From: Candidatus Micrarchaeota archaeon
GTDB taxonomy: Archaea; Micrarchaeota; Micrarchaeia; Norongarragalinales; SBBD01
NCBI GenBank assembly: GCA_016212475.1
Contig: JACRGC010000005.1
Coordinates: 157-64,156, forward strand
DNA: 64,000 bases
Reading direction: 5' to 3'
Part shown: positions 32,054-45,325 of the stretch, piece after piece
How positions within the stretch are numbered: position 1 is the first letter of the stretch
Layout of the letters: each line of letters begins with the position of its first letter
Made by a program: the position numbers and the translations under genes
Notes under the pieces: generated by a model
Told to the model about the DNA's origin: nothing
Seen by the model: the letters and a program-made list of their open reading frames with translations, nothing else
Databases searched by the model: none

Positions 32054-35000
32054 CTAAGTGCAGTCTGTTTCCGATATTATTACATTGTTCGTATAATCCT
32101 TAAGGATTACCTTGAATTTATCGGCATCTATTATCCAATCATTTTTACAATTGTACCAGCAATAAGAAGGAGGCAATTTGCCATCCCGTTTCAAATAATC
32201 CAAAGAATTTGCATAGCCTTGGATGCGATTTTCGACATAAATTAATTTTTCAAGTATTATTTCTGTTGAGGGTGCGCCATTTTTTGCCAGGGAATTTGTC
32301 GTGATATAATAAGTGGTTTTGGGGGCTATCTGATCGACATTTTCAAATTTCAAATAGAAATCCAATCCTCCGAAAACCGCGCCGGTTTGGATTCTGCATG
32401 CATTTATTTTAAAGATTTTTTTCGGAATTAGGGGGCTGGCATCAGGTTGTTTTATTGGAGTGGCAGTTGCCGCATCTTTTGCCTTTTCCTCATCTAGCAT
32501 GGAACTCGTTTTACCACTTGTTCCGGCAGGCAATTGCTTTACTTCCAAAATAGTTCCGCCATTTTTAACAACCAAATCGAATTTTGCAAGCTTTCTTGCA
32601 ATTTGCTTTAACTTCCCAATCGGCTTTTTATATTCGGTAATTGAAAGCAGCTCAATTGCAAAATTGTGCTTGAATTCGGTGGAAGGAGTATTGCCGGCAT
32701 TGGCAAATGCAACCGCATAGTTTGTCGTCAAGAAAAGCCCGTTTTCATCGAATTCGCACGCATAGTATTTTTCCTTTTCGGATGCATCCTTTCCTGAGAG
32801 GCTAAAGGCCGCATCAAATTGGTCGGAAGAAACCTTGCAGCCGTATTTTTTTGCGAGTTCAGAAGTTTCCTCCGGCGCAACAATTCCCCCGCCCAAGAAT
32901 GGGATTTGCGATTTCAAATCTTGCTTGGGATCAACAAGCGCAATTTCGTACCCATCCTTGAAACTGGCAACTGAAATATCCGCAGAAACGGTCCCTTTCA
33001 TCCCCTTGCAGCTAAACGATGCATCTTCCAGGGGAACTGCCATCTCAAATGCGGTTTTGTCATCTTTTGCAGCTTCCTTGAAGGATTTAGCGCCCTTATC
33101 ATCAGTTGCAAGAACGTAGTTCTTCATTTCCAATTTTCCAAGATCGAGGGTTACTGTGCTGCTTTGATCGCCAAACAATGCAAATCCATCAAAGCCATTT
33201 ACTTTGCACTCCTCCTCCAAATAATCAGAAGTGTGCTTGAATGCCGCCTTGGCATCATCATCGTTATTTGTGATTACGAACTGAAGCGGCTTGCCAGAAA
33301 TAATTGGCTCATTGTCAAATTCGTTTTTGCTTCCCAATTGTAGTTTAAGTGGCAAGAGCGAAACAACATTTGCAGACGAATAATATCGCCTAATGTAAAG
33401 ATTGCCATCCTGCGAGGTAAGGCTTTTCCTGTTAAACAAGGAGGCATCAGCCTTGGCATCAAACGATATTTGCAGGGATGAACCCGATAATTTGCAAAGT
33501 GAATTGAAAGGCGTAATTGCTTTTACAAGGGAGCCGGCATTTGGAATTGCAAATGGGTTGAACGAGGCGTCCTTTGAATTCAATGAAATTTTAAACGCTG
33601 AAAAGAATTCCGGATCCCCATAAACATTGCAAAGCGGCTCGGTTTTTGAATTTTCAGCCTGCGTGAAGGAAATGAATCTTGAATTTGTGAACGGATCAAG
33701 AACTATGTCCACATCATTCAATACCGAATTCTTAAGGGCATTCCCAAATGGCTTTTGAACTGTGCGCCTATCGCCCCTGGCAACAATCCTAACTGGCACG
33801 GTTTGGGATTTTCCGGATTTCATCCTAAATAAGATCGAGCCTTCAATGAAGCCCGAATCGCAGGCAGTTGCGGAATATCTTGGATCAACAGAGTATGACG
33901 ATGGGGGATACAGCAAGGAATTTTGTTGGTAATTAGAATATTGGAATTGGGAAGGGGGATAAATCATCGGTGGCTGCAATGAATTCATTTGCGGATAATC
34001 CAAATAATTCATGTAGCCGTTTTGATATTCAGGAACTGGGTAATATCCATTACCAAACTCATTCAGTCCCGGATAACCCAATGGATTGCTAAACGATGCG
34101 GTTCTTCGGTAGTAAGCTTCGCACGCTGGATTCATGCCAAATATCCTATCAAGCAGCCTATTGTAAATATCATTCCCGGAAAAGTCTGCAAATACGCGGA
34201 TCCGCTGCTCTTCTGCCGAGCAGTATTCCGTAGTGATGCCAAAATCAAGCCCTTGCAAGTTGCAGCCGGTAACCGGCTCGCTGAATGGCGAAAGGGAATA
34301 GATGAATTCTGATTTTCTTGTGTATGGGTCCACTTGGATTACAATTGGATTTGGAATTGGCGCAAGATTCTCATAATAATTGATTGGAGGGATAGCATCC
34401 GGAGAAGGATGATCCGGGGCAGTTACTATAATTGAGTACATTTTCACGAATTGATCCGCAGACCTTAGCATCAGCGTGCCTCGTTTCCTTAAGGAATTGA
34501 AGATTTTTTCGCTGGAATAATCAGCTGAAATATGGATGATGTTTTTTGTGCATTCGACATTCACATTGAAATCTTCAGGAGCTTTGATATCGCAGTAACT
34601 GACATCCCCGGCAACCGGGGAATAAAATGCATCAAAAAGCCCGTTCTCATCCAATTTCACATAAATTGTGGGCGGAATCACTGGAAGCGTTGGATCGCCA
34701 ATTGAAATCACATCCGGCGATTTTACATCAATTCTTATAGGAATTGCCTTGCGAATAAATTGCTTTGGGGTTATTTGCTGCTCAAAAATCAGATTGCAGT
34801 TGGTTTTTGCTGTTGATTTTTCCAAAATTCCAAGTTGGACGCTTGCAGAGGCTTTGAAATTATCAATTGAATTTGGGAATGCATAAACTACAGGGGAATC
34901 CTGATTTTGGCAATTTGAAATTATTGAAAGCATGCCTTTTGTTGGATGGGTCGAAGTTATGGAAACGGTTTTTGCCTCAATTGATGAGGAATCCCCCGCG

Positions 35001-45000: not shown

Positions 45001-45325
45001 CATCCGCATTTGTTTTGGCGGCAAGAATGTTTCCAGCTGCAACTAGTTCAATTGAAGCATCGGAAAGTGCAACTTCATTTTCATCAAAAACCGTGATTTT
45101 GAGGGAATTTGGGGCCGAATTGTATAGCAGGAATATTCCACCGGCTAAAATCAAAAGCAGAACCGTAAAAACAACCGGAAGCGAAGGGATCCCCTTGTCC
45201 TCGATTGGATTGATTACTGCCTCATACACAGGGATTTTAAGGTTTTTTTCAAGGTAATCGCAAAAAGAATAGTATCCTTCCTCGATATTGCCATAAAATT
45301 CGTTTAAGGATTCCTGTAGCTCCAT
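39014..45325 (-). CDS. Giant (2103 aa) membrane-anchored surface protein. N-terminal TM, CarboxypepD_reg-like domains, a central ~350-aa array of 6-Cys knottin/hevein-like modules, and C-terminal beta-rich domains.
   Basis: TM LPVVFTVLLLILAGGIFLL. Domain motifs ..ADGTAQFEKLPKN... About 8 repeats of C-G-x3-4-Q-x-C-C-x4-6-C-x5-8-C-x5-8-C. Confidence 0.7.
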   Translation of the reverse strand: MELQESLNEFYGNIEEGYYSFCDYLEKNLKIPVYEAVINPIEDKGIPSLPVVFTVLLLILAGGIFLLYNSAPNSLKITVFDENEVALSDASIELVAAGNILAAKTNADGTAQFEKLPKNIDAQIKVTKGGFEEKKRDFKIGRGSNSLKIILTQQKEQEFDIAILSFEGSGLNGAEIKYSYSLNGEIISNSVYSDSSGNAKIQAKENTEVTLAISLSGYDGKTLTYAPKKGEVKKITLRIIPIIIPSSENPVFEILVKDDSDGSAVDADLEIYDSLTNDLLKEATTKFGSYQTSDFKVGTALKVKAVADGYAPLSRTKTLVEGKNNLPLRLIKNAGTTNANETFAKIKVIDESKNPLISEIRLWEIELENSTIVETELAESELKASVSRAKGYYATAFREGYLPGKTLKFIGPSEKTISLQKATANNSINLTILALDEDNRKLAATIAFFDSDDYQMPPYDLRTVASTGKLLIKNFPKGIFKIVASKDNFNGFSQVDLQDPAEFANVTLFAPRGEIKISAMNFDNQTISEFSAFAFYQNEKNNSKFASCNPENGVCTLTLRSDKQFKIVVSSPNYEDASISNWRAPANGIREETVTLARLGNSDVSRIRYDKITALNFNPATSLVSDTSYLLFFDIYAKDSVETNSLYLQLLGSDGSEIAHVENYSVDGNFPSKVIGNTQFASSASCTVNFDSAKDAFKPLNWLNAEYSFRGSSKVAFRFKIDPRINADGLVVKFRSLALSRGEVFRDPIDSVLGLALEKDGVPWCKVATKNQTISVSACGNFGEVCCTTRKNTDLTIDSCNAGMRCEKSESQSRGVCTSPTSCGSPNYFCSDNTVCCQGLGGKSCVNSNSCSLANIRECTPTCNIETQFCNSQTDTSAGTCSSITSICGLQSQQCCPGANKCTTGLTCGTNNLCAPCGGVGQECCPYSDSNPNTACTQNLQCVKTVAKSTCQNPEICGSTNSKCVGATVCCKDSDALGVCVPYSECSNQLKCSNCKFDQFCDATNLNVVPICKDCISSPSACAFGKPGQLCSNTDPTKYCQGGACTPQVNSSYGICSACGLVGQKCCDLDPYCTVSDTICSSSTKTCIIGNQDCNNEACVSLEFEQQQNCVSGTSLLCDTVKSGNGFIAKSIKSCGSDCKDGKLKIKYAINEVARKYPGTLTINISNILSIVPESLYVQSANRRTLLSANSNIITIQIPDASWLRGEIIAIPSDPSGKVVVSASYSHASSIPPISVRPYLTVQVGTIAPPTKLPNLFSCNSLEIKTVIYNGTTRPVIETSCDKIVFQVDSIFPQDAIPLIAPENLYQFHFGTLANPNLYDSCFDTSDSNGGKAIRYWPIKSANCPLAPIGNSIPSAEFVMNITLLNSGNSQSKTINISITNYTLSSNVKALDFSVINYKSFDSIPKSYYKFNDESYSPIRLVYSLNNRFLASTMNQPDTYYAATYVPQSTYFVMEPTKALILDKSKTASLFSWNSDSKNSIAFYPKTNQSVVAVPTKVFEINSKDPSQASLTEKLISSAYSASSVNLQGLEDAKKECLSAAVADANLAKSNCASPQTDVCISTYENDIEYIQRDYDDGLSDCLQDYSYCKNQCTQSNSQCLNSCSQQNSSCVANQNSIYNSAIAPYAQNRDQCLAKAENNCQYAYDKEYASKSLECGQLYSKDYDYNFAKAIISEFKKLAIDTAMKTAFKRSFENTLYCTKSQPTQEETANPQICRGSADAWLVVKKLTSKTKLSCEFCYDQYAGTYGVPTPENDNVDVCDIRCQPDPQKTCGSDYCAFIDAGENFTDSNGILNTCQDTGTDAVCPYVCQTKSQKQGDFCGDPSRCNCDPDGTYGADSVLGYEFNWENTSNLVEVKISTGILSLSNSDPLKYFVQSSATKPFKFSAVVPLNGNQVFNILTSSAFTLSSGDRVDVSEVLSEEKCSVRQGVFLLETQTTNGVDLYSGTIDSGYFAKLKPLTIDENYPNEQGSGQDYCGSVVACNLFDPTKILSSKGDYVKNNLFSSAKYPASCLTFEWPIVPDLLFNLNYFETADKAKSGTGGFYQPDATQYSNLLQASTYYYIKGTWTRNSFLWKNLFSLAYSRWTSGKITPYKIAKYPDVFSP

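Follow-up and report, generated by a model that had tools for sequence, protein, structure and literature searches.

Two giant proteins encoded side by side in a Micrarchaeota genome share an N-terminally anchored rod and are probably old members of a family of giant surface proteins

In a 64,000-nucleotide stretch of the genome of a Candidatus Micrarchaeota archaeon (positions 157 to 64,156 of contig JACRGC010000005.1, GenBank assembly GCA_016212475.1; hereafter the window), two very long open reading frames (ORFs), here called A and B, lie intact on the minus strand and together take up 12,294 nucleotides, or 19.2% of the window. An earlier reading made from the DNA alone (the sequence-only reading) had already drawn attention to this pair, giving the exact coordinates that we recover here as well as the combined extent (~12.3 kb, ~19%), and had described the products as paralogous giant surface proteins that diversified after duplication and as candidate host-attachment factors. 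Our analysis suggests that A and B probably belong to a large family of giant surface proteins, within which they diverged long ago, and that they likely form rod-like surface appendages which present lineage-specific distal regions to other cells or substrates. In what follows, L numbers denote related loci or contigs and P numbers (P0001-P0161) denote proteins of the family; the coordinates of all features are collected in Table 1.

The relationship between the two proteins lies in their N-terminal parts. BLASTP aligns A 6-207 with B 16-218 at 29% identity (E 4e-10) and finds a second stretch, A 384-452 against B 386-454, so that the similarity seen earlier between the first extracellular domains is borne out and extends well beyond them. 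Comparing small family alignments by hhalign gives one collinear match that covers A 2-773 and B 1-778 with a probability of 99.7% and an E value of 9.5e-26, at an identity of ~19%. Two cysteines, Cys548 and Cys555, are present in both proteins and are invariant in 14 of 14 family sequences. Beyond ~775 residues, no similarity between A and B is found by comparing profiles of each distal block built from 10-52 sequences (best probability 3%). Only the first 37% of each protein can therefore be called "paralogous", whereas the distal 1,200-1,300 residues are unrelated.

Each protein contains only one strongly hydrophobic segment, located near the N-terminus (A 30-59, B 45-71); the same Kyte-Doolittle scan over the whole proteins shows neither a C-terminal anchor nor a second hydrophobic segment. 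This agrees with the head of ~30-50 residues and single transmembrane (TM) helix proposed earlier, the heads measuring ~30 residues in A and ~45 in B, and from this topology the head of B would be cytoplasmic. The C-termini (...ISETDCT in A, ...KYPDVFSP in B) have no hydrophobic segment and thus do not resemble those of PGF-CTERM/archaeosortase or LPXTG/sortase substrates. In almost all of the ~139 family matches described below, the head ends in a common motif, E-x-(K/R)-G-(I/V)-P-S-x-P, placed right before the single N-terminal TM helix and read as LEEKGVPSPR in A and PIEDKGIPSLP in B. Two head types can be told apart, each of them widespread in the family: an A-type (...L-E-E-K-G-V-P-x-P-R followed by the TM helix) and a B-type (...E-D-x-Y-Y-x-x-x-D-x-L...P-V-Y..F-V-x-P-I-E-x-(K/R)-G-I-P-S-F-P followed by the TM helix). 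Class III (type IV pilin-like) signal peptides, as sought by FlaFind-type rules, have a short leader, a [KRDE]-[GA] cleavage site and hydrophobic residues right after it. We considered K-G-(I/V)-P as such a site and rejected it as non-canonical: the K-G is followed by V/I-P-S-x-P, with proline at +2 and +5, and the leaders are 30-75 residues long, conserved and predicted to be helical. As a separate observation, some second hydrophobic segment occurs in 13 of 110 long family members, and near the C-terminus of the B orthologues P0006 (1957-1985) and P0019 (2074-2109) there is an additional hydrophobic insert, rich in Gly and Ala, which is missing from B.

Behind the TM helix the shared module is predicted to continue as a rod of beta-sandwich domains that spans ~720 residues, with six domains of CarboxypepD_reg/MG-like type and a larger Cys-bridged one. 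An AlphaFold2 model of A 1-1190, based on a 37-sequence alignment and with a mean predicted local distance difference test score (pLDDT) of 81.9, has a helix at 11-28, the TM helix at 34-52, six beta-sandwiches at 61-597, a larger Cys-containing beta domain at 606-780 and another three or four beta-sandwiches that reach ~1190, giving ten to eleven beta-sandwich domains in total. Of the strings of CarboxypepD_reg and Big-type domains proposed from the sequence alone, the rod itself and the first domain type hold for both proteins, with CarboxypepD_reg (PF13620, gathering cut-off 32.3 bits) scoring 61.3 bits in A and 48.9 bits in B, whereas Big_1 (PF02369, cut-off 34.9 bits) passes in A (37.8 bits) and falls short in B (22.3 bits). 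The Big_1 match overlaps that of CarboxypepD_reg on the first domain. Apart from one weak match in A noted below, all Pfam matches of A and B are confined to the first ~450 residues and are of beta-sandwich types, with faint SpaA, SdrD_B and MG matches among them; a CarboxypepD_reg match is a domain name and says nothing on function. Searching the Protein Data Bank (PDB) with the model of A by Foldseek returned only strings of MG/Ig-type domains (alpha-2-macroglobulins, complement, hydin-like, DSCAM and mastigoneme proteins) with TM-scores of ~0.1, and because of these low scores the match is generic and does not identify a function.

To delimit the family, an exhaustive HMMER search was run with a profile of the N-terminal module against 1.84 billion representative sequences. 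This gave 18,248 matches at E <= 1e-3, many of which are unrelated CarboxypepD_reg repeat proteins, and 1,035 matches at E <= 1e-30. Among the best 150, all with E <= 1e-83, ~135-139 align over the full 800 positions of the profile as a single stretch located at the N-terminus of the protein, and these proteins are mostly 2,000-3,800 residues long. By this sequence measure the family comprises at least ~135 clusters at 50% identity, a size that rests on HMMER, a word-indexed homologue search with the alignment of the N-terminal module having returned few matches. All 16 of the 16 members with a source name belong to Micrarchaeota or Micrarchaeia, so that on sequence the family is apparently restricted to this phylum. 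Several members can occur in one genome: L001 has three within 26 kb, L006/L007 a tandem set of three, and L005 two. All named members carry the label "hypothetical", "carboxypeptidase regulatory-like" or, if they end in an M23 peptidase, "DD-metalloendopeptidase"; we found no description of the family in the Micrarchaeota genome literature, although our coverage of that literature is incomplete and this is weak evidence of absence. The tandem trios, from a more distant Micrarchaeota lineage, encode proteins of 2205, 2238 and 2894 residues (L006 7272..26113, L007 1674..20695) and lie just downstream of an exosortase/archaeosortase-like gene (PF09721), a gene for a 414-residue protein of no known type and a YdjM-like gene.

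The locus itself is conserved. Its full gene order, namely a LonB-like AAA+ ATPase gene (divergent), B, a RibC-like gene (opposite), tRNA-Gln, A and an ACT-domain gene (opposite), recurs in three other Micrarchaeota genomes (L001/L011, L002 and L012), and parts of it are found on three more contigs that are shorter, on the B side in L008 and on the A side in L003 and L013, where the RNA polymerase operon follows as in the window. The orthologues of A are 38-43% identical to it and those of B (L001, L002, L008 and L012) 37-42%. Across genomes, the giants are thus at 37-43% identity, compared with 84-90% for the RNA polymerase subunits, 74-80% for the LonB-like ATPase, 68-77% for PurA and PurC and 60-67% for the small flanking genes. 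Within A, the distal 600 residues change quickest (25-35% identity).

These comparisons bear on two alternative explanations for the pair. Their adjacency on one strand and the common N-terminal module would fit a model in which one gene was duplicated locally in tandem and the 3' ends then diverged, giving a strain-variable locus, which is close to what the sequence-only reading had in mind. Because A and B are each represented by a separate orthologue (~40% identity) in other genomes, with the gene order preserved, we take the split between A and B to be ancient and the locus to be conserved rather than strain-variable. The low identity of the shared module, the two widespread head types and the absence of distal homology even by profiles also argue against local duplication, as do the fragments of a close relative, which are 86-87% identical to both genes, and we regard it as highly improbable. 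A second explanation, that the long ORFs arose through errors of assembly or annotation or represent decaying pseudogenes, would draw on the metagenome-assembled source and on the proneness of very long ORFs to chimeric assembly. An independent Logan assembly contains the identical 1993-residue A ORF, undisrupted; together with the lack of sizeable DNA tandem repeats inside either gene, which leaves nothing to mis-assemble, this makes an assembly artefact unlikely. B is a 100% match to NCBI HY989_01780 (Candidatus Micrarchaeota archaeon), full-length orthologues of the giants exist in at least five other assemblies, and cysteines and domains are conserved and the structure prediction is confident. 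Taken with these points, an artefact or decay is extremely improbable. The G+C content is even across the window, and the remaining content consists of core genes, including those for FtsY, A-ATPase subunit I, AdoHcy hydrolase and aCPSF1/FttA as well as purA, purC, a split rpoB and rpoA.

The distal regions are where A and B, and the members of the family, part ways, and the differing downstream ends noted earlier (a Y/P/Q/N/S-rich segment in A, a cysteine array in B) are both present. In B, which has 95 cysteines in total (4.5%), all Cys of the array are invariant across four B orthologues; P0032 and P0034 contain the array in as many as four copies, and it finds no Pfam or PDB match at E values up to 10. 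The region behind it has zero Pfam matches at E up to 10. For A 800-1993, the only Pfam match at E <= 10 is a weak one to CarboxypepD_reg (residues 123-202 of the fragment), which lies outside the A-lineage distal region (~1111-1830). The low-complexity segment at A 1306-1392 is conserved among A orthologues in sequence, beyond mere composition, and low-complexity linkers precede the C-terminal tips. Nothing usable came out of sequence searches of the PDB with profiles of both families and of the Cys array. An AlphaFold2 model of A 800-1993 from a 4-sequence alignment had a mean pLDDT of 39.7 and was not used, except for a beta-sandwich at ~1000-1110 that the model of A 1-1190 confirms.

Some of the tips found in relatives carry enzymes. 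Two A orthologues end in an M23 peptidase (P0003 1965-2068, P0020 2188-2275), with the HxxxD and HxH motifs visible in P0003. Running Pfam on 35 long members gave nothing beyond rod-type domains, M23 in three members and one cupredoxin; the proteins with M23 are the A-lineage relatives P0003, P0020 and P0027, plus one more protein. In addition, a 2436-residue member from the same genome as P0008 has SLT and Amidase_2 domains behind Big_1 and CarboxypepD_reg; the positions concerned in L005 are 26841..27386 (start of the 2436-residue gene) and 10001..17386. The lineage-specific distal regions span 1,200-3,000 residues, and because their blocks combine differently among members, the family appears to evolve in a modular way.

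A further difference between the two lineages lies in N-glycosylation sequons (N-X-S/T). A has a single sequon in 1,993 residues, where shuffled sequences give an expectation of 16.9 (z = -4.4), and its orthologues have 0-5 (z -2.4 to -4.5). In contrast, B has 19, every one of them beyond residue 340 (z = -1.7), with 16-26 in its orthologues (z -1.2 to +2.6). When members are pooled by head type, the ratio of observed to expected sequons is 0.33 for A-type (n = 38) and 0.82 for B-type heads (n = 71), with a Mann-Whitney p of 1.7e-7 that carries no correction for phylogeny. The other proteins of the window are neutral when pooled (43 observed, 50.6 expected), and a secreted 1293-residue ORF is depleted (11 observed, 22.6 expected). 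The latter (59865..63746, plus strand) has a cleavable-looking signal peptide and FN3 and purple-acid-phosphatase-N-like domains, and is outside the giant family. The sequon pattern suggests that both giants may meet the extracellular glycosylation machinery and that glycans would be selected against on A-type fibrils. We take the sequon depletion in A and in the secreted ORF, together with the invariant Cys pairs and arrays, as signs of extracellular exposure.

How might such proteins work? A and B would be anchored in the cytoplasmic membrane in type II orientation, with the N-terminus inside, and the rod would serve as a spacer that carries the distal region over the pseudoperiplasm and the surface layer (S-layer). 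In Ca. Micrarchaeum harzensis, the pseudoperiplasm measures 20-25 nm and the S-layer protein is a separate 101-kDa PF05123 protein (10.1101/2021.04.28.441871). The distal regions would then contact other cells, cell walls or substrates, and a hydrolase tip, where present, would remodel the contacted target. A and B might stay side by side through doing different jobs, one possible sign being that the A-type avoids N-glycosylation sites and the B-type does not. Attachment of A and B to a host is plausible, with indirect support from the extracellular topology, from a divergence much quicker than that of the neighbouring genes and from the M23, SLT and amidase cargo of relatives.

Several observations weigh against a role in presenting distal regions to other cells. 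A rod length of ~25-30 nm for the shared part and of ~40 nm for A is an estimate from the domain count at an assumed ~4 nm per domain. The distal ~60% of both proteins has no fold assigned by the Pfam and PDB searches or by the model of A 800-1993; M23 (PF01551) is absent from A and B according to Pfam, and no enzyme domain was found by Pfam in the B-lineage proteins. Relatives within the Norongarragalinales have substantial biosynthetic capacity. Finally, the one-to-one orthology of the giants, their fixed place among core genes (RNA polymerase operon, purine genes) and their retention in all related genomes would suit a housekeeping component of the envelope equally well. The last point leads to the main rival, in which the giants are structural pillars that space or tether the S-layer, with a role like that of SlaB, rather than contact or adhesion factors. 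Besides single copies and fixed synteny in each related genome examined, this explanation can point to an estimated rod length on the order of the 20-25 nm pseudoperiplasm and to the possible TM stalk partner for the S-layer protein raised by Gfrerer et al. (10.1101/2021.04.28.441871). A pure spacer would hardly need such variable cargo as is seen here: there are 1,200-3,000 residues past the rod, tips including M23 are swapped between orthologues, up to three or more paralogues with differing distal parts coexist in a genome, and the giants diverge far faster than their neighbours. We therefore regard pillars as unlikely, though worth keeping in view.

The enzyme tips raise another alternative, namely that the N-terminal module is an export handle for a polyprotein whose distal part is cleaved off and set free, be it a matrix protein or a soluble effector of bacteriocin-like or lytic kind (for example via an M23 tip). 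In its favour, relatives do have hydrolase tips, low-complexity linkers lie ahead of the tips, and archaeal peptidoglycan hydrolases that kill bacteria have been documented (PMC12352652). Against it, Pfam searches of A and B and of their distal parts revealed neither a protease domain nor a recognisable cleavage motif, enzyme domains are lacking in most members, and a 10-domain rod would be a costly handle. We regard release as improbable. Membrane-anchored appendages with exchangeable distal regions remain our preferred reading. A bolder version of it, which is quite unlikely as it stands, is that the family is a cell-contact apparatus specific to Micrarchaeota, in which the head motif would couple the fibril to an intracellular partner or processing step, and the A-type (unglycosylated, tip-swapping, sometimes a peptidoglycan hydrolase) and the B-type (glycosylatable, with a disulfide-knot array) would be the two parts of a system, one recognising and the other attacking or remodelling the envelope of the partner. 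If true, some groundwater Micrarchaeota would physically interact with bacteria, beyond archaea alone.

Table 1 Features of the giant-protein locus (window positions; residue numbers refer to A or B)
Feature	Position	Strand	Residues	Basis and remarks
Gene A	32054..38035	-	1993 in total	218 kDa, isoelectric point 4.85; A-type head; ORF and translation
Gene B	39014..45325	-	2103 in total	229 kDa, isoelectric point 5.05; B-type head; ORF and translation
TATA-like box of A, TTTTTAAA	38059..38066	-		-31..-24 from A ATG; read from sequence
TATA-like box of B, TTAAAAAA	45354..45361	-		-36..-29 from B ATG; read from sequence
A predicted cytoplasmic head and TM helix	37859..38035	-	head 1-29; TM ~30-59 (34-52 in model)	amphipathic helix 11-28; motif L-E-E-K-G-V-P-S-P-R
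B predicted cytoplasmic head	45194..45325	-	1-44	E-E-G-Y-Y-S-F-C-D-Y-L...P-V-Y...P-I-E-D-K-G-I-P-S-L-P; abuts TM helix; conserved in B-type members
B single TM helix (signal anchor)	45113..45193	-	~45-71	Kyte-Doolittle
A shared rod	35717..37858	-	60-773	six ~85-residue beta-sandwiches and a larger Cys-bridged beta domain (606-780); hhalign, Pfam, model
B shared rod	42992..45112	-	~72-778	homologous to A 60-773; hhalign, CarboxypepD_reg, C548/C555
A-type rod extension	34706..35716	-	~774-1110	three extra beta-sandwich domains; common to ~60 family members, not B
A-lineage distal region	32546..34705	-	~1111-1830	common to P0001/2/3/20/101; at 25-28% to P0027/29/36/42
A Y/P/S/N/Q-rich low-complexity segment	33860..34120	-	1306-1392	15 Y and 12 P in 87 residues
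A variable C-terminal tip	32057..32545	-	~1831-1993	~160 residues; orthologue tips longer, different, no mutual alignment
B cysteine-module array	41906..42991	-	~779-1140	recurring CG..G(Q/E).CC and CGS....C.....CC modules
B distal region	39017..41905	-	1141-2103	second Cys-rich stretch ~1537-1830; common to B-lineage proteins only
Double-ACT-domain protein, convergent neighbour of A	31594..32028	+		conserved in L001, L003, L014; by position in L012; syntenic flank only
tRNA-Gln(CUG), non-canonical intron(s)	38214..38322	+		Rfam 29 bits (permissive scan); anticodon loop CUCUGAA read from sequence
RibC (riboflavin synthase)/DMRL-synthase-like gene	38397..38972	+	191 in total	Pfam PF00885 33.5 bits; NCBIfam ribC_arch 37 bits
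LonB-like AAA+ ATPase, divergent neighbour of B	45533..46978	+		soluble; conserved in L001, L002, L008 at 74-80%

The A/T-rich boxes upstream of A and B, which had been recognised before, match a consensus only, and fit separate, nearly leaderless transcription of the archaeal type. The tRNA-Gln and the small gene said to separate the giants are both there, although on the plus strand and thus opposite to them. The tRNA-Gln was missed by ARAGORN, in the window and at every related locus, and by the Rfam scan at gathering thresholds, because of its intron(s). At the corresponding site in L002 and L010 its exon parts (1-22 and 81-109) recur with 100% identity, one exon each is found in L001/L011 and L012, and the middle part differs in length between loci. 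At least one non-canonical intron lies in the D-loop region, and in relatives the insert is longer and a further intron apparently follows the anticodon (L002 17462..17616, L010 1028..1182, L012 ~9776..9803, L001 ~9923..9944). Elsewhere in the window, the only tRNA above the Rfam gathering score (52782..52890, plus strand; 44.9 bits) was likewise missed by ARAGORN and presumably contains an intron too, because it spans 109 nucleotides. The RibC-like gene is retained here in every related genome examined: L001, L002 and L008 have it between the two giants, and L012 by its position. It scores weakly against ribC_arch (cut-off 100.55 bits), and its product has a long acidic Ser/Asp-rich tail. The LonB-like ATPase on the other side of B (lon_rel 346 bits, below the cut-off) lacks both a protease domain and a TM segment, and at the place of the membrane hairpin of LonB it carries a zinc-ribbon-like insert (CxxC...CxxC). 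As a functional partner of B it was rejected for now, being next to B in the close clade only and absent at the distant family loci. In most archaea, RNA polymerase subunit A is divided into A' and A''. Here it is a single ORF of 1129-1133 residues with Rpb1 domains 1-5 (window 21308..24697, minus strand; L003 11531..14920; L012 21972..25373), and rpoB is in two pieces where subunit A is undivided.

How DPANN archaea recognise and hold other cells is largely unexplained in molecular terms, and few candidates have been named besides the nanohaloarchaeal SPEARE proteins. Giant surface proteins are expected in ultra-small symbionts, and the function proposed here is inferred. With its predictable architecture, diagnostic head motif and exchangeable distal cargo, the family offers specific targets in cultivated Micrarchaeota systems, and the conserved contrast between A and B in the use of N-glycosylation sites is a testable clue to different roles.

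Among known systems, alpha-2-macroglobulins and complement resemble A and B at the fold level only, through their strings of similar beta-sandwiches; they give the best Foldseek matches, and bMG3 and MG4 match faintly, below the cut-offs. Missing from A and B are a thioester, a bait region and the A2M and receptor-binding domains, and the TM-scores are ~0.1. The S-layer protein SLP_Mh is an envelope protein of the same phylum that shares an acidic isoelectric point and a beta-rich structure with A and B (10.1101/2021.04.28.441871), but it is a 101-kDa PF05123 protein with few sulfur-containing residues and many glycosylation sites, whereas B has 4.5% Cys and A almost no sequons; neither PF05123 nor the TIGR01567 S-layer domain is among the Pfam matches of A and B at E <= 1. 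The stalk protein SlaB of the Sulfolobales has its anchor at the C-terminus, whereas in A and B it is N-terminal. Archaeal M23, amidase and lytic-transglycosylase domains, notably those of DPANN, have been interpreted as acting on bacterial walls (PLoS Biol 2025, PMC12352652). The same domains form the tips of some family members, yet the described hydrolases are small modular enzymes with wall-binding domains, whereas here the enzyme ends a membrane-anchored rod of >2,000 residues, and A and B carry none. The giants of Omnitrophota, which occur in ultra-small cells with an episymbiotic or predatory way of life, are likewise very large, largely unannotated and mostly extracellular, with attachment and wall- or carbohydrate-degrading domains in some segments only (10.1101/2023.11.21.568195). 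They differ in being bacterial, 10,000-85,000 residues long and equipped with many TM regions and SecA-like domains (West-Roberts et al.), compared with one TM helix, 2,000-3,800 residues and a defined common N-terminal module in the family of A and B.

In role, the closest analogues are the SPEARE proteins of Nanohaloarchaeota, which have 3,300-8,500 residues, a single TM helix, a mostly extracytoplasmic location and adhesion-type domains, can occur several to a genome, and for which a role in host contact has been proposed (Hamm et al. 2019, PMC6642349). A and B are likewise giant single-TM proteins of a DPANN lineage, predicted to be mostly extracytoplasmic. There is no sequence relationship, and SPEARE proteins are usually anchored near the C-terminus and have a conserved cytoplasmic type III restriction-enzyme domain, laminin-G and serine protease domains, none of which is found in A or B by Pfam at E <= 1 over the whole proteins or E <= 10 over the distal parts; the cytoplasmic part of A and B would span only 30-45 residues. 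In design, the closest systems are bacterial adhesins. LapA, SiiE and MpIBP have an N-terminal anchor, a long extender rod of BIg-like beta-sandwiches and ligand-binding modules at the distal C-terminal end; they use type I secretion and outer-membrane retention, and have RTX nonapeptide repeats with a C-terminal secretion signal and near-identical tandem repeats in the rod. A and B show no RTX/HemolysinCabind match in Pfam and no notable DNA tandem repeats and thus do not group with the type I-secreted RTX/BIg adhesins; their anchor would be a TM helix in the archaeal cytoplasmic membrane, their rod domains are divergent, and the split rpoB and the intron-containing tRNA mark their source as an archaeon. 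The design logic is nevertheless the same as that of A and B.

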